64,000 bases of DNA from Gemmatimonadota bacterium (GCA_040389905.1 JAZJZK010000022.1:1-64000), one strand, 5' to 3'; positions 39,182-50,375 are shown, counted from the stretch's first letter. Notes: generated by a model from the sequence alone, not told the origin. Numbers and translations are program-made.

Positions 39182-40318
39182 TCAGGGGCGAACGGTGACG
39201 CCGATGCTGAGCGTAAACGCAGTTTCCGACAGGTTTGCGCCGGCCTTTCGCGTGGCGCGGATGCCGGCAATGTCGAACGCGGCACGGCCACGCGCCATGA
39301 GCGTGCCCGCGCCGAAGGAGTAGCTGTCCTCACTCACGCTTGTCGACGCCAGGCCGAATGGGAGCGTTCGGCTCCGCATGCCGGCGCGCAATTGCACCGG
39401 GTTCTGACCGAGGTGCGGCCCGAGAATATCGGCGCCGAAGCTCGTGTCCCAGCCATCGGTGATGTGCACATTGGACGAGCCGAGCAGGTTCATGCGCGAC
39501 CAGGTGTCCTTCGCGCGCCGAGCGGCGATCGTCGTGCCCTTGATGCCGGTGTACGCCGCGCTGAAGGCGAGCCGGTCAGGCACGTGCGCATTCGAAATCG
39601 TGGTATCTCCGCGCTTGATGGAGAGCGGGCCACCACGCCGGTACGATCCGGTGATGGAAAAGGCCTTTCCGGAGACTTCCACGCCGGTGGAGAATGCCTT
39701 CCCAGTGTAGCCGACCGTTGCGGTGTCGACGAGCGCCGCGAAGCGCGAGCTGTCGTCGAACACCTGGCTCGTCGAGACGCGGTTGTCACCCGTGACGGCG
39801 TGCGCAGCCGCGCCAACCTTGAGCCAGCTGCGCGGGTTCCAGGCGAGCGCGACCCGCACATCGCCAATGGCGCCATCACTCTTGAAGCGGTTCGTGGTGG
39901 CGAGCGACGTATCACCGATGGATGCGTTGCTCCGCGTCGTCGTCTCGAAGCTCCGCTCGAGAAGATTCGAGAGGCTGAGGCCGAGCATCACCGTCGGCGT
40001 CACTGGAAACGCCGCGACCACGAGCGGATATCGCGCAACGGAACTCTTCTCCGACACGGCGCCGATGTGCAGCGTGCGATACTCGGGCTCCGCCTGGAAA
40101 TACAGCGCCGAGCCACCGAAGTACGAAATCACCGCGGGGTTGGTCGCGGAGAGCGGGTCGATGTCCCCCATCGCACCGCCGGTGCCGAGCGAACGCGTGC
40201 TGAGTTGTCCGCTCGGATATCCGAAACCGAGCTGCGAGATGGTACCCTGTGCGCAGAGCGGCGTGGCAGAGACCAACGCGGCCAGCAGATAGCGGGTTGT
40301 CGTAGTGCGCATCATCAC
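39182..40318 (-). CDS. Hypothetical outer-membrane barrel protein (FadL-like N-terminal pattern)
   Basis: Signal peptide, RSLGTGG...NPA motif, beta-strand pattern. Confidence 0.6.
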   Translation of the reverse strand: MMMRTTTTRYLLAALVSATPLCAQGTISQLGFGYPSGQLSTRSLGTGGAMGDIDPLSATNPAVISYFGGSALYFQAEPEYRTLHIGAVSEKSSVARYPLVVAAFPVTPTVMLGLSLSNLLERSFETTTRSNASIGDTSLATTNRFKSDGAIGDVRVALAWNPRSWLKVGAAAHAVTGDNRVSTSQVFDDSSRFAALVDTATVGYTGKAFSTGVEVSGKAFSITGSYRRGGPLSIKRGDTTISNAHVPDRLAFSAAYTGIKGTTIAARRAKDTWSRMNLLGSSNVHITDGWDTSFGADILGPHLGQNPVQLRAGMRSRTLPFGLASTSVSEDSYSFGAGTLMARGRAAFDIAGIRATRKAGANLSETAFTLSIGVTVRP

Positions 40319-41598
40319 GGAATTCCAAAGCCGCGACGCGGCACGTAGGTGAGGCGAAGGCGCGGGCGGAGTGCCGCCAATCCCTCGATGGACGTGAAGC
40401 TCAACTCGCCCGCCACCGCACCCTCTTCCGCGGGTCGAAGGACGATCGATCGAGAGGTGTTCTTCTCACCCACGGCTTTCCAGAAGCGCACGAGATTCAC
40501 CAGCTCGATGCTCTTGGTCCCACTGCCTGTCGGGACGAAGCGCACCGAATCGACGCCGTATGCCGTCGGGCTGCCCATGAAGGAGAGCGCGGTCGTCACG
40601 TCAGTGACGGACGGCGACGCCAGAATAGGGTGCGTGAAGATCGTCAGCGTGTCATTGGTGCGCCCAGTGGAGCGGCCTGGCACCTGATTCAGCAGCAGCG
40701 AGGCGCGGATCACCTGCACCGAATCGCTGAGCGTCGACGGCAAATCGAATTTCAGATACGCGCGCGCACCGGCGATACCGCCGATCACGAAGGTCCCTGG
40801 CGGCGGTGGCGGCAGCGCGCCCTTCACGACAACGGGGTACACGGCGAGCGTCGCCTGGATGTACTCGTTGTCCGTAGGCGTGAGCGACGTCAGGAACACG
40901 GTGTCGGGTTTGACGCTCGTATCGGCCGACACCCTGAAGCGAAGGCGTGGCGAGAACGAGGACGCGATCATCTTGAGCCGCGCCGATCCGGTGGAGCTCG
41001 ACACCCGCAGCCCGATCCGAAGGTTCAAGGTGTCCTTGATCTTCGCGAACACCTTGTCGTTGTTCAGCGTCAGGCGGACGGTATCCTTGAAATCGCCCTT
41101 CTGGAACGTCTGCGAACCGATCAAGCGGTCAGCGCGGAACAGCGGAATCAGCGTCGACGGCAGTGTGTCGTTCGCCGTCGTGTCCACGTCGAATGCGTCG
41201 ATCGTCAGGGGAAAGGTGGGCGCGGACGCCAGCGTGTCGACGACGAAAAGCATCGTCGTACTATCGACCATGCGGATGAGGCTGTCCGCCAACGTGACCG
41301 GGAATGGGTAGATCGCCGGCAACGTATCGAACCGCGTGACCACGCGCACATCGGCCGTATCGCCTTTGTCGAGCATCGACAGGTCGCGGCTCTCGCCCAG
41401 ACGAGGGTAGCCGAACAGCGACGAATCGAGGACGACGGCGCCGAGGAGCGTCGTGTCGCGCAACGTTCCGCTCTCATCGGAGCAGAGCGACGGACACCCA
41501 GCACTCACGGCGACGTTCTCGCTACACCCGCCGAGCAATCCTATGAACAGGAACGCCGCGAAGGCGATCCGGAGAATCCGGTCAGACACTACGTACAC
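40315..41598 (-). CDS. Hypothetical lipoprotein
   Basis: Lipobox LLGGC; 427-aa ORF overlapping the next gene's start. Confidence 0.65.
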   Translation of the reverse strand: MYVVSDRILRIAFAAFLFIGLLGGCSENVAVSAGCPSLCSDESGTLRDTTLLGAVVLDSSLFGYPRLGESRDLSMLDKGDTADVRVVTRFDTLPAIYPFPVTLADSLIRMVDSTTMLFVVDTLASAPTFPLTIDAFDVDTTANDTLPSTLIPLFRADRLIGSQTFQKGDFKDTVRLTLNNDKVFAKIKDTLNLRIGLRVSSSTGSARLKMIASSFSPRLRFRVSADTSVKPDTVFLTSLTPTDNEYIQATLAVYPVVVKGALPPPPPGTFVIGGIAGARAYLKFDLPSTLSDSVQVIRASLLLNQVPGRSTGRTNDTLTIFTHPILASPSVTDVTTALSFMGSPTAYGVDSVRFVPTGSGTKSIELVNLVRFWKAVGEKNTSRSIVLRPAEEGAVAGELSFTSIEGLAALRPRLRLTYVPRRGFGIP

Positions 41599-41622: not shown

Positions 41623-42060
41623 TCAGCGGCGCCCAAGTGACGTGGGGGTAAAAGCCTGGGGAAGAAGGTCCGAGATGGACCACTGCTGCTCCGCGCCCTT
41701 CGTCGTAATGCTGAGAACGACGAGTTGCGGCGCGAACTCGACCAGTACCTGCCGACAGATCCCGCATGGCGGAGTCGGCGATTCCGCTTCGGTGGCGATC
41801 GCGATCGCCGTGAATTCCCGCGTGCCGCGCACGATCGCCGCCGACACTGCGGCTCGCTCCGCACAGATCCCGGCAGGATACGACGCGTTCTCGACATTAC
41901 AGCCAATCGAAATCGAGCCATCCAAACCCAGCACCGCCGCGCCGACACGAAAGTTCGAATACGGCGCGTAGGCGTGACGCATGGCCGCCACCGCGTGCTC
42001 TCGAAGATTGGCAAGGTCCAGCGGCGTGGACCTGGCAATTCTCACGGCGCGCGCACTCAT
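41623..42060 (-). CDS. cdd: Cytidine deaminase
   Basis: AYAPYSNF, NVENASY, CAE, PCGICRQ. Confidence 0.95.
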   Translation of the reverse strand: MSARAVRIARSTPLDLANLREHAVAAMRHAYAPYSNFRVGAAVLGLDGSISIGCNVENASYPAGICAERAAVSAAIVRGTREFTAIAIATEAESPTPPCGICRQVLVEFAPQLVVLSITTKGAEQQWSISDLLPQAFTPTSLGRR

Positions 42061-43229
42061 GCTCCGCGCTCCAGTTCAGGCAGAAAAGAGGTTCCGCGCC
42101 CGCGAAAACCGACGTGAAGCCACTCGCCGACCGTTGCCCCCAGGTCGGAGAACGTTGGGCGGACGCCCAGCGCGAGCGGCCGAACCGCTGCCCCGCAGAC
42201 GAGCAAGGGCACGCGCTCGCGCGCGTGATCGCTCGAGCCCGTTGTCGGGTCGTTGCCGTGGTCCGCGGTAATGAACAGCAGATCGTCCTCTCGAAGAGCG
42301 GCGCGAATGGCCGGTAAAGCGTCATCGAACTGGCGCAGCGCGCCCTCAAAACCGGCCACGTCGCCGCGGTGACCGTATAGCGTGTCGAAATCTACAAGGT
42401 TGGCGAACAGCAACCCACCCTGCGTGCCCGCGAGCCACTCCAGGATCGCCCGAATGCCCTCGGCGTTGTCCGCCGTGTGGCGCGCGGTCAAGGAACGTCC
42501 CGCAAACAAGTCGTCCACTTTGCCAACCCCTGCCCGGTGGACCCCTGCTCCAGCCAGCGCGTCAAGCAGCGTCTCTCCGGGTGGAGCAATGGAGAGATCG
42601 CGCCTGTTCTTGGTTCGGACGTACGTACCCTCCTCGCCGACGAATGGCCTCGCAATCACTCGAGAGACATCGTGCGGTGCAACCAACTGCGCGCGCGCGA
42701 TCTCGCAGGCGCGATACAACTCGGCCAGCGGAATCACCGCCTCGTTCGCGGCCACCTGAAAGACCGAGTCCGCCGACGTATACACGATCCATTTTCCGGT
42801 CCGCGCATGCTCGGCGCCAAATCGCTCGATGATCTCCGTCCCACTGGCGGCCACGTTCCCGAGGACGCCCCGCCCCGTTTCTCTCTCGAAGGCCTCGAGT
42901 ACCTCAGAGGGGAACCCATTGGGGTACGTCGGAAAGGGTTTCGCGAGATGGAGTCCTGCAATCTCCCAGTGGCCGGTTGTGCTGTCCTTTCCCGCCGACG
43001 CCGGATTCATCATTCCCCACGCGCCCGCCGGAGCTACCGCCGGTTCCACCCCTTCAAGTGGCGCGATGTTCCCGAGGCCGATCGCCTGAAGATTCGGCAG
43101 AAGCAACCCGCCCCGCACACGGGCGATATTCCCGAGGGTATCACTGCCGACATCGCCATAGGCCGCCGCGTCGTCCGCTGCCCCGATCCCGACGCCATCC
43201 AGCACCAGGATGACTGCGCGATTCCTCAT
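42057..43229 (-). CDS. deoB: Phosphopentomutase
   Basis: LDGVGIG, GKDSTTGHWE, YTSADS, RVIARPF, TADHGNDP. Confidence 0.95.
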   Translation of the reverse strand: MRNRAVILVLDGVGIGAADDAAAYGDVGSDTLGNIARVRGGLLLPNLQAIGLGNIAPLEGVEPAVAPAGAWGMMNPASAGKDSTTGHWEIAGLHLAKPFPTYPNGFPSEVLEAFERETGRGVLGNVAASGTEIIERFGAEHARTGKWIVYTSADSVFQVAANEAVIPLAELYRACEIARAQLVAPHDVSRVIARPFVGEEGTYVRTKNRRDLSIAPPGETLLDALAGAGVHRAGVGKVDDLFAGRSLTARHTADNAEGIRAILEWLAGTQGGLLFANLVDFDTLYGHRGDVAGFEGALRQFDDALPAIRAALREDDLLFITADHGNDPTTGSSDHARERVPLLVCGAAVRPLALGVRPTFSDLGATVGEWLHVGFRGRGTSFLPELERGA

Positions 43230-44308
43230 GCCGGTAACTCCGGGGCTTCCTGGCCGACGTACCGGCGGGGCAAACGAAGGCGAAGCCCTGTGAGGACTTC
43301 GTAGGCGGACACGTCGCTTCGCTGGGCGAGTTCGCTCACGGTGATGACGTCGCCCCCGTCGCGGCCGAGCAGCGTGACAAGATCGCCTAATTCGGCTTCC
43401 ACATCAGTCACGTCCAGCATCGTCATGTCCATGGTCACTCGGCCCGCCACGGGAATGCGCTGTCCCCGTAACAGCACCTCGCCCCCGTTGCTGAGCGATC
43501 GGCGATATCCGTCGGCATACCCCACCGGCACCGTGGCGATCCTCCGAGCGCCCGCGGCACGCCACGTCGCATCGTAGCCCACCGATTCCCCGTCGTTTAC
43601 GGTGCGCATCTCGACGATTCGCGCTCGCATGCTGGCGACTGGCTCGGGGACAAGCGCGCCTCCCTCGATGGACGATACGCCATAGAGAAAGATGCCGGGG
43701 CGGCACAGGGTCCATGGCGACGGTGCACGCATCTCAATTGCCGCGCTGTTTTCGACGTGGACGACTGGCGGACGCTCGGGGAGTTGGGCCAGCGCCTCCG
43801 CGAACCGTCGCTCCTGCACCGCTCGGCTGTCGTCGGTGAGTTCAGCGGAGTGGAAATGGGTGAACACGCCTGCCGGCGCCGAACGCTCGAACAGCAATCT
43901 ATTTTCCAGAACTTGCGTCCAGAGCATGCCCGCCCGAGACATTCCGGTGTCGATCTGGAGTTGCCAGGGTCGCCCCGTCCTCGCCCACGATTCGATGACG
44001 GCAGGATCGCCAAGGGCTGGCGTCAGGTCGGCGCGCCGCAGCGCGTCGATTTCGTTGCGGAGAATCGGGGTGAACACGACAATCGGCCGGCCGATGCCAC
44101 CGCGGCGTAGATCCTCGCCCTCGGCCACCGTCGCGACGCCAAATCCCCACGGATCGAGCGCATCGAGTGCCAAGGCGGCGCGAAGCCCTCCGAGGCCGTA
44201 GCCGTCCGCCATGACCATCGGCAAGATCGGCGCGCCCGCCAGGGCACCGATGGCGGCGCCGTTGCGGCACAAAGCGCCCAAGTCAACCTCGACCCAGGCG
44301 CGTGTCAT
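43226..44308 (-). CDS. alr: Alanine racemase homolog lacking the PLP lysine (Met33)
   Basis: WVEVDL, PMVMADGYG (canonical VKADxYG), DTGMSR, RPGI, VGY, GYADG, GRVTMD. Confidence 0.88.
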   Translation of the reverse strand: MTRAWVEVDLGALCRNGAAIGALAGAPILPMVMADGYGLGGLRAALALDALDPWGFGVATVAEGEDLRRGGIGRPIVVFTPILRNEIDALRRADLTPALGDPAVIESWARTGRPWQLQIDTGMSRAGMLWTQVLENRLLFERSAPAGVFTHFHSAELTDDSRAVQERRFAEALAQLPERPPVVHVENSAAIEMRAPSPWTLCRPGIFLYGVSSIEGGALVPEPVASMRARIVEMRTVNDGESVGYDATWRAAGARRIATVPVGYADGYRRSLSNGGEVLLRGQRIPVAGRVTMDMTMLDVTDVEAELGDLVTLLGRDGGDVITVSELAQRSDVSAYEVLTGLRLRLPRRYVGQEAPELPA

Positions 44309-44310
44309 CT

Positions 44311-44334
44311 GACGGCGCGAGTAGCTATCATGTG
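44311..44334 (+). repeat. Imperfect direct repeat, left boundary of epimerase/murF-alr cassette
   Basis: GACGGCGCGAGTAGCTATCATGTG matches 48090-48113 at 20/24, last 11 bp identical. Confidence 0.65.
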
Positions 44335-44422
44335 GAGACTAAAGAAGATAGGAGCACCGCCAGGTCGGTGCAACCGAGGTGGTGGGCGTTCTTCGACGCC
44401 GACGATGGGCAAAATGGTTGCC

Positions 44423-45520
44423 TCAGTGCACGAGCGCGCAGCCGTGGCCGAGGAGTCCGTCAGGGATCGATATCGTCGGCCCTTCATAGACCATTCCACC
44501 GGCAATCGGCCCCGGGCGCATGAAGAACGGCGTGTCGAGATCTACATACCGAATCGTCTCGGGATAACGCATGGCAAGAGCTGCCGAGACCGTCATGCTC
44601 AGCCGTGTCTCTACCATGCCACCGATCATGCAGACCATACCACGATCAGCCGCTCGCTCGATTGCCACCACTGTGGGCCCCAGACCCATCTTCATGGTCT
44701 TGAAGTTCACGGACCGCAGTGACGGAAACTGACAGATCGCGTCGAGGTCCTCCACCGACTTCAGGGATTCGTCGAGGCAGATCAGCACGTCAGTGGACTC
44801 CTGAAGCGTGGCCAGGTCTCTCAGCGACTCACGCGACAGCGGCTGCTCGAGCAGGGGAATCGCAATGCCAGCGGATGCCAGCGACGCCAACAACTCGCGC
44901 GCCGTCGCCAAATCGTACGCGCAATTAGCGTCCAACACGATCTCGAGTGAGGGAAACGCGCCGTGAATGCTGACCAGAAGGTCGACGTCCTCGCGAAGTG
45001 CTCGGCCGCCGATCTTCACTTTCAATGTCGTGAAACCCTTCGAGACGACGTCCGCCACGAAGCCGAGCGCCTGATCGACCGGCCCGACGGGCAGGGTGAT
45101 GTCACTCGTTATCGTGCGGCACTGCGGTGGCATCCAGTCGAGCACGGACATGCCCTGTGAGCGCAACCGGGCATCGAGGACGGCCAGCTCCAATCCGCAC
45201 TGCGCCGCCGGCGCATGCGGAAATGCGCCCAGCACGCGAGTGCTTTCGACGTAATTCAAGCGCTCCGCGGGCGTGAGCGTCGCCGTCGTGCGCTCGAATT
45301 CGCGGAGTATTTCGATCGTCGAATCGACGGTTTCACCTGAGACGGCGGGAAAGGGTGCGCTTTCGCCGATGCCGACGGTGCCATCACTCAATGTCGCAGT
45401 GGTGATGACGGCGAGCGCCGTGGCCATGCCGCCACCGGCGATGGCAAATGGCATGATCAGATCGTGCTCGATGATCTCGAACGCTACCGCGGAAAGGCCA
45501 AGCTCCTCAGTCGATGACAC
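44423..45520 (-). CDS. Enolase-superfamily dipeptide epimerase (L-Ala-D/L-Glu epimerase-like)
   Basis: KVKIG, DANC, EQP, DES, NFKTMK, GGMVE, DLD. Confidence 0.88.
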   Translation of the reverse strand: MSSTEELGLSAVAFEIIEHDLIMPFAIAGGGMATALAVITTATLSDGTVGIGESAPFPAVSGETVDSTIEILREFERTTATLTPAERLNYVESTRVLGAFPHAPAAQCGLELAVLDARLRSQGMSVLDWMPPQCRTITSDITLPVGPVDQALGFVADVVSKGFTTLKVKIGGRALREDVDLLVSIHGAFPSLEIVLDANCAYDLATARELLASLASAGIAIPLLEQPLSRESLRDLATLQESTDVLICLDESLKSVEDLDAICQFPSLRSVNFKTMKMGLGPTVVAIERAADRGMVCMIGGMVETRLSMTVSAALAMRYPETIRYVDLDTPFFMRPGPIAGGMVYEGPTISIPDGLLGHGCALVH

Positions 45521-45523
45521 AGT

Positions 45524-48022
45524 TCAATGTCTCACGAAAATGCGTTGAACCCGGGGACCGAGCCGGGAGATGACTTCGTACGGAATGGTCTGCATCGCCT
45601 CTGCCACGTGTTCGATGGACTGCGACGACCGGCCGCGCGCGCCGAAGACGAGGACATCATATCCCACCTCGGCCTCAGGACACTCGCTGAGGTCGATGAC
45701 CATCGAATCCATCGAGATTCTGCCGACCACGGCACATCGTCGCCCATTGATGACGACCGAGCCATGTGCGGCGAAGGAACGAAAAACACCGTCGTAATAC
45801 CCGAGCTGCACGACGCCCACCGTGAGCTCCCGATCCGCCTGGAAGGTTCCTCCGTAGCCCACGCGGTCTCCTGGCCGTAGGACGCGCCGGTCGATGAGCC
45901 GGCTCACGAGTGTCAGCGACGGAACCAATGGGACCGCGCGACAATCTAGCGAGGGAGCGATGCCGAGCAGCGCCAGGCCGACGCGCACCATTTCCATGGC
46001 GTGCCCGGGAAACCGAATGATGCCCGCACTTGCCAGCGCGTGGCGAGGCGGGATCGTTGCGCCGGCTGCCTCGGCGGCGCTGATCGTCTGGTCGAACAGT
46101 GCGAGTTGGCCTCGCGTGAAGTCGTCCATCGATTGCTCATCCGCACTTGCGAGGTGCGTCATGATTCCGGCAACCGGAACATTGGCGCGTTGGAGCGCAA
46201 GAAGCGCGGACGGCGTGATGTCGGGTGCGAGTCCCGTACGATGCATTCCCGTGTCGACCTCGAGATGCACATTCGCAACTCGGTCTGGAGACGCGAGAAC
46301 CGCGCGTAGTAATTCCTCGCTGTGCACACAGGGCGTCAGGTGTGCGATACGCGCCTTGTCGAGTTCGTCCGGCGTGGCCAACAACACGAGGATCGGACGA
46401 GAAACGCCCGACCGTCGAAGGGCGACGCCCTCATCTGTATGCGACACGGCGAACTGGTCGACACCAGCGGCGGCGAGATGGCGCGCGAGCTCGGTTGCGT
46501 CTGCGCCGTACGCGCTCGCCTTTACCACGGCCATGATCTGCGCGCCCGGACAGCGGTGTCGCACCATCGCGAGGTTGATCTCGATAGCGCCGACGTCGAT
46601 GTAGAGCCTCGTCGGCGCCATCGCTTCGAACAGTTCCTTCGCGATGCCATCGATCATCTGGCCTCGCCCCGTAAAGAGCGCGACGACATCTCCAGCGCGC
46701 ACCTCTCCGATGAGCGCGGCCCCAAGCGCACCCGCGTCGTGGAAGACGTGAAGCTCGGCCGCGGACTTCGAGTCGGCCATGATGTCGGCCGCCCGTCCTG
46801 CCGTCATGTAGATCGACGCCGTCTGCTGCGCGACAAGGTCTCGCAGCGTGAGGAGCGTATTCTCCGACAACGCGTGTACCGCCTCGTTGAGCACGAGGTA
46901 GATTCGGCCATTCCCTCCGGCCGTTGCCACCGCATCCGCGATCGCGACGCGCCACGCCATCGCATCGTCCACGACCGCGCAACGCAGGAAGTGCACGCCC
47001 TTCGGCGATTTCCACGTCTGCAGGTCGAGCGACGTCGGGCTGTAGGATTGTGAGCGGGGAGCGTGCGCGAGAATCGTCGCGGCCGCCGCGGCAAGGGCGA
47101 CATCGTCGGCCAACCACGATGAGGAGGTGGCCACTTCGATCCGGGATGTGGTCGCGTCAGGGGAGCGAACGAGCACACTCATGATGTCGGAGCCAATCCG
47201 CTCGATTCGCTCGACGGGCCACCGGGCGGTGCGTGGTTGCTCCAGAGACGTCCCCGTCGGCAGGAAACGCGCGAGGTTCGTGGCGGGGTCACCGCAGACC
47301 ACTTTCCCGTTCGGCGGTAGGTGACGCGCGAGTTCGGAGAGTTCCGCGGCGTACCGCTCCATGCTGCCGAAGCGGTGCTGAAATCGGCTTCCGACGTTCG
47401 TCACGACGAGGCTCGTCGGGCGCACCATATCCGCATGCCGCGCCATTTCCCCCATTTCCGTCGCGGCAATCTCGATGACGGCATAATCCGCCTCGGGAGG
47501 ACACGAGAGCAGCGACAGGGGAACACCAATCTGACTGTTGAAGCTACCCGGGCTGCCGTAGCAAAAGCCCGATTCACCGAGGAACGACACGAGTGCGTCC
47601 TTCGTACTCGTCTTGCCGACGGAGCCGGCCACGGCGATGACCTCGCAGCGGAGTTGCAGCCGGTACCAGCGGGCGAGGTCTTGCAGGGCGGTCAACGAGT
47701 TGTCGACGCGCACGAGAGCGCGTCCATCCGCATTGCCCGACCACGTTTGCTCGACGATCGCGCAACTTGCTCCGCGATCGAGCGCATCTAAAACCCATTG
47801 ATGGCCGTCGCGCTTGCCATGCAGCGCGAAGAAGATGGTGCCTCGCTCCACGAGACTCGAGTGAATGGCAACGCGACGCGGGCCGAGGTCGACGTCCGCG
47901 TCGATGTCGCTCGCTGCGACAATGTCTCCGTGCACAACCGTCGCCAAGTCGCGCAGCGTCAACCGAATCGCAGACGCCGCATCCGCCTGACGAATTCCCG
48001 TTCTCACGTTGTCCGCGCGCAT
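45524..48022 (-). CDS. MurF-like ligase / alanine racemase fusion
   Basis: N-half AGSVGKTSTK, SFNSQIGVP; C-half AVVKASAYG, DTGMHR, VGYGG, GRISMD, TIPYE. Confidence 0.88.
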   Translation of the reverse strand: MRADNVRTGIRQADAASAIRLTLRDLATVVHGDIVAASDIDADVDLGPRRVAIHSSLVERGTIFFALHGKRDGHQWVLDALDRGASCAIVEQTWSGNADGRALVRVDNSLTALQDLARWYRLQLRCEVIAVAGSVGKTSTKDALVSFLGESGFCYGSPGSFNSQIGVPLSLLSCPPEADYAVIEIAATEMGEMARHADMVRPTSLVVTNVGSRFQHRFGSMERYAAELSELARHLPPNGKVVCGDPATNLARFLPTGTSLEQPRTARWPVERIERIGSDIMSVLVRSPDATTSRIEVATSSSWLADDVALAAAAATILAHAPRSQSYSPTSLDLQTWKSPKGVHFLRCAVVDDAMAWRVAIADAVATAGGNGRIYLVLNEAVHALSENTLLTLRDLVAQQTASIYMTAGRAADIMADSKSAAELHVFHDAGALGAALIGEVRAGDVVALFTGRGQMIDGIAKELFEAMAPTRLYIDVGAIEINLAMVRHRCPGAQIMAVVKASAYGADATELARHLAAAGVDQFAVSHTDEGVALRRSGVSRPILVLLATPDELDKARIAHLTPCVHSEELLRAVLASPDRVANVHLEVDTGMHRTGLAPDITPSALLALQRANVPVAGIMTHLASADEQSMDDFTRGQLALFDQTISAAEAAGATIPPRHALASAGIIRFPGHAMEMVRVGLALLGIAPSLDCRAVPLVPSLTLVSRLIDRRVLRPGDRVGYGGTFQADRELTVGVVQLGYYDGVFRSFAAHGSVVINGRRCAVVGRISMDSMVIDLSECPEAEVGYDVLVFGARGRSSQSIEHVAEAMQTIPYEVISRLGPRVQRIFVRH

Positions 48023-48089
48023 CGCGAATTCATCGACTGGGCGGCGGCCGACGCCGCAGCGTTCCGGCGCCTCACGCGCAATGTTCCTT

Positions 48090-48113
48090 GGCGGCGCAAC
48101 TCGCTATCATGTG
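48090..48113 (+). repeat. Imperfect direct repeat, right boundary (contains a TATCAT -10-like box upstream of mazG)
   Basis: GGCGGCGCAACTCGCTATCATGTG. Confidence 0.65.
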
Positions 48114-48146
48114 CACACGCAACAGCATACGAGGCTACCGAGAGCG

Positions 48147-48914
48147 ATGCAACCGAAGCCGGGACTGGCGGATACGCTGGCACTAATGAAGGATCTTCGC
48201 CTGCGCTGCGAGTGGGATGCGGCGCAGACGCACGAGTCGCTGCGCCCGTATCTGATTGAGGAGGCGTATGAGGTCGACGATGCCATCCGCTCGGGTGACG
48301 ACCGCTTGCTCCGCGAAGAGTTGGGGGACCTGCTCCTTCAGGTGCTGTTCCACAGCGTCGTCGCGGAGGAGCGTGGTGCGTTTGATTTCGCGGACGTCGC
48401 AGAGGGGTTCCTCGCCAAGATGAAGTCACGTCACCCGCACCTGTACGAGGGTGGCGAGCGCCAGAGCTGGGAAGGCATGAAGGCGAAGAAACGGGACAGC
48501 ATCGTCGACGGCCTGCCTGCGGAACTCCCTGCCTTGCATCGTGCGTTCCGTCTTCAGGATCGGGCGGCGGGCGTCGGCTTCGACTGGCCTGATGCGGTAG
48601 GGCCCGCCGCGAAAGTGGAGGAAGAGCTCGCTGAAGTCCGTGCCGAGGTGGACCGTGGGGCGAAAGCCTCTGGCAATGGGGTGCCGGACCCGCTGCTCGA
48701 GGACGAACTCGGCGATCTCCTCTTTTCCGTGGTCAACCTGTGCCGGAAGCTCGGTGTGCACCCGTCACTGGCGCTGGATAAGGCGAATGTGAAGTTTGCT
48801 ACGCGATTTCAGGGGATCGAAGCGCTCGCCAAATCAAGGGGAATTGATGTGAAGACGGCCGGCCTCGACGTCCTCGACACGCTCTGGGACGAGGTAAAAA
48901 AGTCGCCGCTTTAG
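48147..48914 (+). CDS. mazG: Nucleoside triphosphate pyrophosphohydrolase MazG
   Basis: WDAAQT, EEAYE, EELGDLL, RHPH, GFDW, second ELGDLLF. Confidence 0.93.
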   Translation: MQPKPGLADTLALMKDLRLRCEWDAAQTHESLRPYLIEEAYEVDDAIRSGDDRLLREELGDLLLQVLFHSVVAEERGAFDFADVAEGFLAKMKSRHPHLYEGGERQSWEGMKAKKRDSIVDGLPAELPALHRAFRLQDRAAGVGFDWPDAVGPAAKVEEELAEVRAEVDRGAKASGNGVPDPLLEDELGDLLFSVVNLCRKLGVHPSLALDKANVKFATRFQGIEALAKSRGIDVKTAGLDVLDTLWDEVKKSPL

Positions 48915-49020
48915 GAGCGGATTGAACGAATACACCGGAAACTACCGGATCAAAAACAGCCAACACATTCAAATTGAGTGATCTGGCTGTTTCCGGTGCA
49001 TCCGTTCAATCCGTTCCTAA
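48911..49020. repeat. 32-bp inverted repeat between convergent mazG and asnS
   Basis: TTAGGAGCGGATTGAACGAATACACCGGAAAC vs GTTTCCGGTGCATCCGTTCAATCCGTTCCTAA (29/32). Confidence 0.8.
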
Positions 49021-49070
49021 ATCCGTTGCGAATGTGAGCGGTGATTGAGCTGACGCCGGTCGAGGCAAGT

Positions 49071-50375
49071 CTACGGCCGCAGCCGATGCATCATCCTCGG
49101 AAATGCGATCACTTCCCGGATATGCTGCAGTCCACAGATCCACGCGACCGTCCGCTCCAATCCGAGCCCGAATCCGGCATGCGTGAACGTCCCGTAGCGC
49201 CGAAGGTCCAGATACCAGTTGTACGCTTCCATCGGTAGCCCTTCGTGCTGGATCCGCGCCACGAGCTTGTCGTAGTCATCCTCGCGCTGTGACCCGCCGA
49301 TGATCTCTCCGTACCCTTCTGGCGCCAGGCAGTCATTGCAGAGGACAGTGCGCGGGTCGTCCGGGTTTTCCTTCATGTAGAAGGCCTTGGCCTCCTTCGG
49401 GTAATTCATCACGAACACCGGGCGATCATACTCCGCGACGATCAGCGCCTCGTCCTCTGCGCCGAGGTCCTCGCCCCATTGTGTCGTGCTGCCCTTTGAC
49501 TGGATGAGCGCTACGGCATCGGTGTAATCCAGGCGAACGAAGGGCGCCATTACGGTCTCGAGCTTTGTAACGTCGCGCTCCAATTCCTTGAGTTCGACCT
49601 GCCGGCGTTCGAGGACGCGTTGGACCAGGTACGAAACGAAATCCTCCTGGAGCCGCATGTTCGCCGCCGAGTCGTTCCATGCGACTTCCGGCTCGATCAT
49701 CCAGAATTCGGTGAGGTGCCGCCGCGTCTTGGATTTCTCCGCGCGAAATGTCGGGCCGAAGGTGTAGATCTTTCCGAATGCCGCCGCCGCGGCCTCGCCA
49801 TAGAGCTGGCCGGTTTGTGCCAGGTAGGCATTGCCTTCGTCGAAGTACTCGGTCGCGAACAGGCCGGAACGCTCGCCGATGGCCGCCGTCAGGATCGGCG
49901 TATCGACCCTCAGGAATCCGCGCTCGTAAAAGAAGTCATGAATTGCTTGCTCGATTTCGTTACGAATCACGGCAATCGCCCGCTGACGCGGTGAGCGCAG
50001 CCAGAAGTGACGATTGTCGAGGAGGAAGTCGATGCCGTGCTCCTTCGGTTGAATCGGGTAATCCACCGGGCTCACGCCAATGATCTCGAGGTCCGTCACG
50101 CCAATCTCGAAGCCACCGGGCGCACGGGGCTCCGCGCGAGCCTCACCGGTGATCGCGACCGATGTCTCCGTCGTCAGCTGTGCGAAGCGCTCCCAGACCT
50201 CGATGGGTAGCTGGTTCTTCACGAACACGGTCTGGCAGACCCCTGTTCCGTCGCGGAGGACGGCAAACGCGATCTTCCCTGAGGAACGGACGTGCGTGAC
50301 CCAGGCACGAACGGTCACGGTGGTTCCAGCGTGCGCAGCAAGCTCGGAGATACGGAGAAACGGAGCGGAGGACAT
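49071..50375 (-). CDS. asnS: Asparagine-tRNA ligase
   Basis: YLAQTGQLY, FGPTFRAEKSKTRRHLTEFWMIEPE, GEIIGGSQRE, GLGLER. Confidence 0.96.
   Translation of the reverse strand: MSSAPFLRISELAAHAGTTVTVRAWVTHVRSSGKIAFAVLRDGTGVCQTVFVKNQLPIEVWERFAQLTTETSVAITGEARAEPRAPGGFEIGVTDLEIIGVSPVDYPIQPKEHGIDFLLDNRHFWLRSPRQRAIAVIRNEIEQAIHDFFYERGFLRVDTPILTAAIGERSGLFATEYFDEGNAYLAQTGQLYGEAAAAAFGKIYTFGPTFRAEKSKTRRHLTEFWMIEPEVAWNDSAANMRLQEDFVSYLVQRVLERRQVELKELERDVTKLETVMAPFVRLDYTDAVALIQSKGSTTQWGEDLGAEDEALIVAEYDRPVFVMNYPKEAKAFYMKENPDDPRTVLCNDCLAPEGYGEIIGGSQREDDYDKLVARIQHEGLPMEAYNWYLDLRRYGTFTHAGFGLGLERTVAWICGLQHIREVIAFPRMMHRLRP

Follow-up and report, generated by a model that had tools for sequence, protein, structure and literature searches.

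An alanine racemase gene, alr, that has lost its catalytic lysine was found beside an inserted pair of genes in a 64,000-nt stretch of Gemmatimonadota DNA (GCA_040389905.1 JAZJZK010000022.1:1-64000; hereafter the window). The locus is probably a case of xenologous displacement of alr caught midway, in which the foreign pair, seated in a duplicated promoter region, took over D-Ala synthesis. In xenologous gene displacement, a housekeeping gene of the host gives way, in its own locus or close by, to a homologue of foreign origin. Read in this way, the locus captures the moment at which a foreign homologue of 31% identity takes over from a gene essential for the cell wall, and the end state of the replacement is visible in three other genomes of two phyla. 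The locus also bears on the question, raised in the available part of PMC13726279, of what the MurF' region does and how such fusions spread. Moreover, it points to a gene cluster of Actinomycetota, including cultured Dactylosporangium, that combines an epimerase, a tandem double Ddl and a MurF'-Alr fusion.

Gene order of the locus

The features of the locus are as follows (window positions).

41623..42060, minus strand: cdd, cytidine deaminase (native operon)
42057..43229, minus strand: deoB, phosphopentomutase (native); its ATG overlaps the stop codon of the resident alr (ATGA)
43226..44308, minus strand: resident alr; frame intact, K33M at codon 44210-44212, also A21G, R23L and S244G; predicted to be inactive
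44309..44379, no strand: left copy of the duplicated alr/mazG promoter region; in it, the start codon of mazG has degenerated to GTG
44423..45520, minus strand: MLE-subgroup enolase-family enzyme, predicted dipeptide epimerase
45524..48022, minus strand: MurF'-Alr fusion of 832 aa; degenerate MurF-like region (about 1-465) and intact Alr domain
48088..48158, no strand: right copy of the duplicated promoter region
48147..48914, plus strand: mazG (native); in relatives, alr lies directly divergent from it

Thus, cdd, deoB, the resident alr, the enolase-family gene and the fusion all lie on the minus strand, followed by mazG on the plus strand. The gene order cdd-deoB-alr given by the original prediction was borne out, with the resident alr at 43226-44308(-), and the enolase-superfamily gene (44423-45520(-)) indeed begins 3 nt past the fusion stop codon. 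The source genome is a single metagenome-assembled genome, 84.6% complete, and the named homologues of its resident Alr belong to Gemmatimonadaceae/Gemmatimonadales.

Two neighbouring features were also observed. Downstream of cdd, at 39182-41598, there are two genes (378 and 427 aa) with no Pfam match; their products are predicted to be exported, one is lipoprotein-like by eye, and fragments show conservation beside cdd in Gemmatimonas. Between the convergent mazG and asnS genes lies a hairpin (48910-49021) with 43-nt arms that are 86% complementary (fold z -10). One arm matches 85 sites, spread over 33 contigs and for the most part paired in inverted orientation, pointing to a dispersed REP/MITE-like family, and a short blastn search saw none at the same site in 39 relatives.

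Insertion into a duplicated promoter region

Is the gene pair native to this site? In relatives, mazG is divergent from alr in 28/29 loci, and the 29th lacks the 5′ end of alr. Same-genus genomes have alr directly divergent from mazG with a spacer of 59 nt in 38/39 and 96 nt in 1/39 (a set that leaves out G012, which the following 54-genome tally includes); the spacer is about 570 nt in one same-order locus. The fusion was not found in the 54 genus genomes searched, where the best match was 35% and confined to the Alr domain, or in the 400 phylum genomes searched. The epimerase was not found in 300 family genomes searched at E 1e-45. The 3.7-kb pair of fusion and epimerase genes is an insertion between alr and mazG. 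The synteny comparison thus upholds the inserted cassette of the original prediction, and relatives are without the cassette at this site, so that it is not a fixture of the lineage. Separately, one same-genus genome has a second, unrelated Alr (L033, G019:C474:9777-10886), which is 35-37% identical to both window proteins, and an intact native alr.

The composition of the cassette (GC, GC3 0.755, codon use, tetranucleotides) is host-like and bears no foreign mark. A transposon or an integrative element, with its mobility gene, terminal inverted repeats and short exact target duplication, does not fit, since the insert consists of two genes only, with no mobility gene, and its flanks are a diverged 71-nt promoter duplication. 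The 24-bp direct repeat that had been predicted to bracket the pair does bracket it, but it is not exact (20/24, 44311-44334 vs 48090-48113; best core 19/22). Its ungapped score is 21, far above chance (8.5±1.5), and none of 600 random pairs from the genome reached it; the repeat was not among the 20 largest repeat families listed and was found by script. Each flank proved to be a copy of the entire 59-nt spacer together with about 12 nt of mazG, and the two agree at 48/71 positions. Since the repeat is part of this 71-nt duplication of the alr/mazG intergenic region and the first mazG codons, it is not a target-site duplication. Compared with the genus consensus, the left copy keeps 34/37 conserved and 17/34 variable positions, and the right copy 33/37 and 18/34, respectively. 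At the same positions, relatives share a mean of 55±5 of 71 pairwise, and 6% of 703 pairs share 48 or fewer. The two copies have thus diverged about as relatives have; therefore, either the duplication took place long ago or a relative contributed one of the copies.

Both copies retain the arrangement of a plus-strand TATCAT and a minus-strand TTGCA-17-TATxxT. In the left copy, the minus-strand boxes TTGCAC-17-TATCTT (44373-44345) face the resident alr; they lie below the scan threshold and are recognized by conservation. In the right copy, the native alr-facing boxes TTGCAT-17-TATGCT (48152-48124), also recognized by conservation, now point toward the fusion, and a plus-strand TATCAT (48105-48110) lies ahead of mazG. 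Scanning both copies for promoters gave a single hit, the plus-strand GTGTCA-18-TATCAT (44302-44331) of the left copy, and nothing in the right copy. No terminator was found at either flank. The fusion may be transcribed from the captured alr-facing boxes of the right copy, while the left copy would drive alr-deoB-cdd. It was also observed that the mazG-facing match at 44302-44331 now runs antisense into the epimerase gene, and that the copy ahead of mazG has no GTGTCA -35 box.

Decay of the resident alr

The original prediction had reported a Met at the PLP-lysine position of the resident alr, and codon 33 (44210-44212) is indeed ATG. This codon is AAG in 39/39 same-genus orthologues, and Lys33 is present in 119/119 closest homologues (the best 119 of 2935). 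Against the same best 119 of 2935, the resident Alr has four changes at strictly invariant columns (A21G, R23L, K33M and S244G), while the others have two at most. The signal is weaker in the 39-genome set, where the resident alr has 3 private changes and the others have 0-3; deoB and mazG of the same genome have 0. By mean dN, alr ranks 35/40 and the comparison genes 7/36 and 6/37, and the relative-rate counts do not agree with one another (11 vs 1 against L190, 9 vs 11 against L012). As Lys39 and Tyr265 are described as the catalytic bases of Alr in the available part of PMC8142540, the resident protein, with Met33, lacks the PLP-binding catalytic lysine of an alanine racemase. Judging from the sequence, the resident alr seems to be inactive and mildly decayed. 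Its open frame may be favoured by the ATGA overlap with deoB; this overlap and the position ahead of deoB-cdd would be what keeps it open.

No other Alr or Dat was evident in the genome, although another source of D-Ala could be unassembled because the genome is 84.6% complete. The other PF01168 matches of the genome are an aldolase-like protein and a 238-codon frame, which by its size may be YggS-like. Both class-IV aminotransferases are IlvE. The native murF, murI and ddl genes are present.

The MurF'-Alr fusion

The 832-aa fusion (45524-48022(-)) retains VVKASAYG (K501) and VGYGG (Y723), as had been noticed in the original prediction. Its Alr domain scores 298.8 bits with TIGR00492 (cut-off 168) and keeps all racemase residues (K501, R595, H623, R680, Y723, D772 and Y815). 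Of these, K501, Y723 and Y815, the equivalents of Lys39, Tyr265 and Tyr354, are invariant or nearly so in 15 sequences. A structure model of the fusion (pLDDT 79) gave TM values of 0.80-0.89 to Alr structures of fold-type III. The Alr domain is 31% identical to the resident Alr, and its best structural and sequence match is VanTG (31%). A VanT-like serine racemase was nevertheless rejected: there is no membrane N-domain, the VanT profile score is far below the cut-off, and Y815 aligns with VanT Asn696/Alr Tyr354, a position where Tyr marks alanine specificity according to the available part of PMC4542195. The fusion would racemize L- to D-alanine with PLP via K501/Y723, supplying the host's own Ddl and MurF. 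Racemization of L/D-Ala was demonstrated for the Phocaeicola dorei homologue (PMC13726279, in its available part).

The MurF-like half retains the P-loop GxxGKT (AGSVGKTSTK) and the Mg-binding Glu (E184). Compared with the genome's own MurF, it has lost the His, GxHN, Arg, DxYN, LGxMxELG and KGSRG motifs. Such motifs have known functional roles in MurF ligases. Their loss extends throughout the subfamily and largely to the sister clade as well. No PF02875 (Mur_ligase_C) match was found in this half, and TIGR01143 gives 175 bits against a cut-off of 288.6. An active MurF ligase was rejected in view of the lost motifs and the absent Mur_ligase_C domain. The fusion also misses the cut-off of the bifunctional MurF/Alr family PRK11930 (477.2 vs 804 bits). 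Its architecture is that of a type 3 MurF'-Alr, namely a MurF-like N-region fused to Alr in a genome with a separate murF. Across the subfamily, Glu stands where carbamyl-lysine is canonical, and LASAG takes the place of the canonical NS motif. In the P. dorei enzyme, which has been shown to be an alanine racemase, the MurF' region modulates activity (PMC13726279, in its available part), and the MurF' half in the window may likewise be a non-ligating modulator.

The epimerase

The second inserted gene encodes a protein with K167-x-K169, D197, E225, D250, K274 and D327-x-D329. These residues place it in the MLE subgroup, with a Lys at the end of beta2 and another at the end of beta6, three ligands for the metal, and the DxD motif. 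DxD is a marker of the dipeptide epimerase family. At the position of YkfB Arg24, the glutamate-binding arginine, the protein has Gly30, with no arginine at or beside it, and it falls below every NCBIfam cut-off (best 134 vs 500 bits; also 69 vs 343). An L-Ala-D/L-Glu epimerase was therefore rejected. The analogy with Ala-Glu epimerases in the original prediction is weak: the Arg24 equivalent is absent here, while a separate epimerase of the genome has an arginine in the loop (FIIARG) and is nearest to DgcA, though under the cut-off. The closest solved structures, 3IK4, 3S5S and 3U9I, have the F-x-I-A-x-G loop and the GGMVE motif in common with the cassette enzyme. Lukk et al. in 2012 reportedly found that these three prefer aromatic or hydrophobic dipeptides. 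By analogy with those results, the specificity is probably non-glutamate, perhaps for hydrophobic Ala-Xaa. Dipeptide epimerase specificities are diverse (PMC13338154, in its available part). The enzyme would serve salvage by inverting the C-terminal residue in small dipeptides other than those with glutamate, probably hydrophobic Ala-Xaa, and may be optional cargo.

A subfamily shared with Actinomycetota

The subfamily to which the fusion belongs is rare. Seventeen homologues of the fusion, with 44-64% identity, stand above all others. In a 77-row tree, the window's fusion falls in a 22-row clade (SH-aLRT 100) with copies of Acidimicrobiia and of the Gemmatimonas type. The sister of this clade has 32 rows, in which every named member belongs to Actinomycetota, and the Bacteroidota-type outgroup is far. 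The closest relatives of the fusion are Acidimicrobiia, Gemmatimonas and further Actinomycetota, and not the Bacteroidota for which the original prediction cited such fusions. Within the clade, the window's fusion sits in a weakly placed fork, and its grouping with the Gemmatimonas copies was not rejected (AU p 0.27).

Fusion loci of relatives were found by an alignment-based search of genome contigs; a single-protein scan gave none. Among the 149 loci retrieved, 11 close-clade loci include the fusion end and downstream DNA. The epimerase gene directly follows the fusion in 5/11 and is missing there in 6/11; the five epimerases are 56-60% identical, with a TGATG overlap in 5/5. Five further fusion/epimerase protein pairs may come from shared genomes, which is an indirect sign. 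Thus, the two genes do occur together elsewhere, as the original prediction required. Of the 78 loci clustered, 32 hold an ORF from a cluster identified as a tandem double D-Ala-D-Ala ligase (about 800 aa), in a few cases via antisense ORFs. None of the 32 is a close-clade locus, and an epimerase is nearby in 9. No double Ddl was found in the window's cassette or in the 11 close loci. The cassette epimerases form a 27-row clade that is sister (support 96, long branch) to the Ddl-linked epimerases, and the fusion and epimerase trees are parallel. From these results I infer an ancestral cluster of epimerase, double Ddl and MurF'-Alr, from which the subfamily lost the Ddl and sometimes the epimerase.

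Some neighbourhoods deserve mention for their own sake. The Actinomycetota cluster with MurF'-Alr and the double D-Ala-D-Ala ligase in tandem, about 800 aa long (L044:6986-13511, L127:1666-8232, L054:7001-14792 and L101:6935-13265) often includes a dipeptide epimerase, an Lrp/AsnC regulator and a class I aminotransferase, and is found in cultured Dactylosporangium. The Gemmatimonas-type fusions (L116:1715-7677, L118:5092-11079 and L043:5149-8535) lie after two creatininase-family genes, have no epimerase, and precede an amidohydrolase-3 gene that is D-aminoacylase-like by reading.

Loss of native alr in other carriers

Native alr was not found in 4/4 other close-subfamily carriers checked (G665, G666, G667 and G787, all metagenome-assembled), and it is missing from its conserved site in three. 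The Gemmatimonas sp. G665 is the only carrier among 87 genomes of its genus. Its deoB and mazG genes lie 520 nt apart on one contig, and no alr remnant was found in the gap by tblastn, blastn or nhmmer; in contrast, an alr match was obtained in 78/80 of its congeners. Among 121 genomes of the Ilumatobacteraceae family, there are two carriers, G667 and G787. In both of them nnr abuts tsaE, while the non-carriers G837 and G790 have nnr-alr-tsaE. Long open frames near alr in G837 and G790 were considered as fusions and proved to be the native alr. G787 has the Alr domain alone (L248:5680-6840), with no MurF' match upstream, and a suspect contig of its assembly carries another tsaE. The search of G666 gave no Alr besides the fusion; tsaE was not found, so the native alr site was not located. 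The sister-clade carriers G668 and G669 keep both genes. The cassette-type epimerase is absent in at least two of the carriers with a deleted native alr (G665 and G667). Together with the insertion seen in synteny and the decay of the resident gene, the loss of native alr in other carriers supports the acquired module displacing the native racemase that had been predicted.

Alternative explanations

Is the displacement adaptive? The pattern does not reveal an advantage, because carriers that lost the incoming gene are invisible, and neutral reciprocal loss accounts for it as well as selection does. A bolder proposal is that the subfamily is a mobile racemase module, cut from the actinobacterial epimerase, double-Ddl and MurF'-Alr cluster, that in two phyla has actively ousted the host alr time and again owing to some superiority. 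MurF' would sense a wall precursor or ATP and tune D-Ala output, or the enzyme would tolerate racemase inhibitors of the soil such as D-cycloserine, or it would couple Ala-dipeptide salvage; the takeover in the window would have proceeded by duplicating and capturing the host promoter. This is possible but doubtful.

The pair may instead be an accessory salvage cassette for the catabolism of dipeptides or D-amino acids, with K33M a recent strain-level change tolerated by redundancy. The promoter copies have diverged like species of the genus (48/71 vs a mean of 55±5); therefore, both racemases must have long coexisted with the resident frame open. In addition, the link of fusion and epimerase is old, as the parallel trees and the TGATG overlap in 5/5 loci indicate, and one sample is known. 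K33M may be strain-level, because DNA of the locus is known from one run, probably the source. However, the resident alr has four invariant-site changes, not one, and three other carriers have a deleted native alr, the cassette-type epimerase being absent from at least two of them (G665 and G667). The salvage explanation thus seems unlikely; it differs from displacement mainly in cause, not in outcome.

The second possibility raised by the original prediction was a module for a non-canonical D-amino-acid peptide. In such a peptide or cell-wall module, a D-amino acid other than alanine would be ligated by the MurF-like half or produced by the racemase, and the epimerase would edit the product. 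The sister clade lies beside the tandem double Ddl in 32/78 loci, with the sister epimerase nearby in 9, the best match of the Alr domain is VanTG (31%), and Glu replaces carbamyl-lysine and LASAG the NS motif. These are points in its favour, but Y815 is the alanine-specificity marker and the VanT score is far under the cut-off. The His, GxHN, Arg, DxYN and ELG motifs seen in the native MurF are gone from MurF', the double Ddl is absent from the window's cassette and the 11 close loci, and G787 has an Alr domain with no MurF' match upstream. Such a module is therefore quite improbable.

An artefact, with Met33 a consensus error or the junctions chimeric, is very improbable: although there is just one metagenome-assembled genome, minor alleles are lost from contigs and no one Logan contig covers the entire stretch, two Logan contigs of run X1 have 0 differences over 42000-47601 (depth 12.9) and 47579-49200 (depth 12.5), each crosses one cassette junction at equal depth, K33M is accompanied by further conserved-site changes, and the flanking copies are 32% diverged and thus no misassembly. 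X1 is probably the source run, so that this second assembly, which also has Met33, is not independent; X1 is the sole run with DNA of the locus. Runs X2 and X3 gave short unrelated matches only, and among the runs listed there was no RNA dataset with the locus. Met33 is thus no obvious assembly slip.

Comparison with known systems

The preferred reading, displacement of alr by the foreign pair, assembles parts that are already known, and the chemistry itself, alanine racemization and dipeptide epimerization, is probably ordinary. The supplement of PMC13726279 already lists Gemmatimonadaceae and Actinomycetota homologues, and thus the presence of the fusion in these phyla is known; the main text, in its available part, is silent on them and mentions no epimerase or Ddl linkage. 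No description of the subfamily, of its epimerase/double-Ddl linkage or of native alr being lost repeatedly was found in the literature searched, which covered few subscription papers.

The closest characterized system is the type 3 MurF'-Alr of P. dorei (PMC13726279, in its available part; NCBIfam PRK11930/NF008897). The two are alike in architecture and length (832 aa here vs 821 aa) and have in common the catalytic Lys and Tyr, the Tyr354 equivalent, a separate true murF and a diverged MurF region. In contrast, the fusion in the window is 27-31% identical to the named Bacteroidota homologues, belongs to a separate clade with a more degraded MurF', and is patchy in two phyla. In Bacteroidota, Alr domains track host taxonomy (PMC13726279, in its available part), whereas the domain here is foreign and replaces a resident. 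The VanT serine racemase, as described in the available part of PMC4542195, is a two-part racemase too and the top structural match, but the fusion here has no membrane domain, has Tyr and not Asn696, and has no van genes nearby. The epimerase shares KxK, three metal ligands, the second Lys and DxD with the dipeptide epimerases YkfB, YcjG and DgcA, while the Arg24 of YkfB has no arginine counterpart in it. As in known xenologous displacement in situ, a foreign homologue supplants the native gene. The present case differs from plain displacement in that both genes are present and the divergent promoter is duplicated, with boxes on each side.
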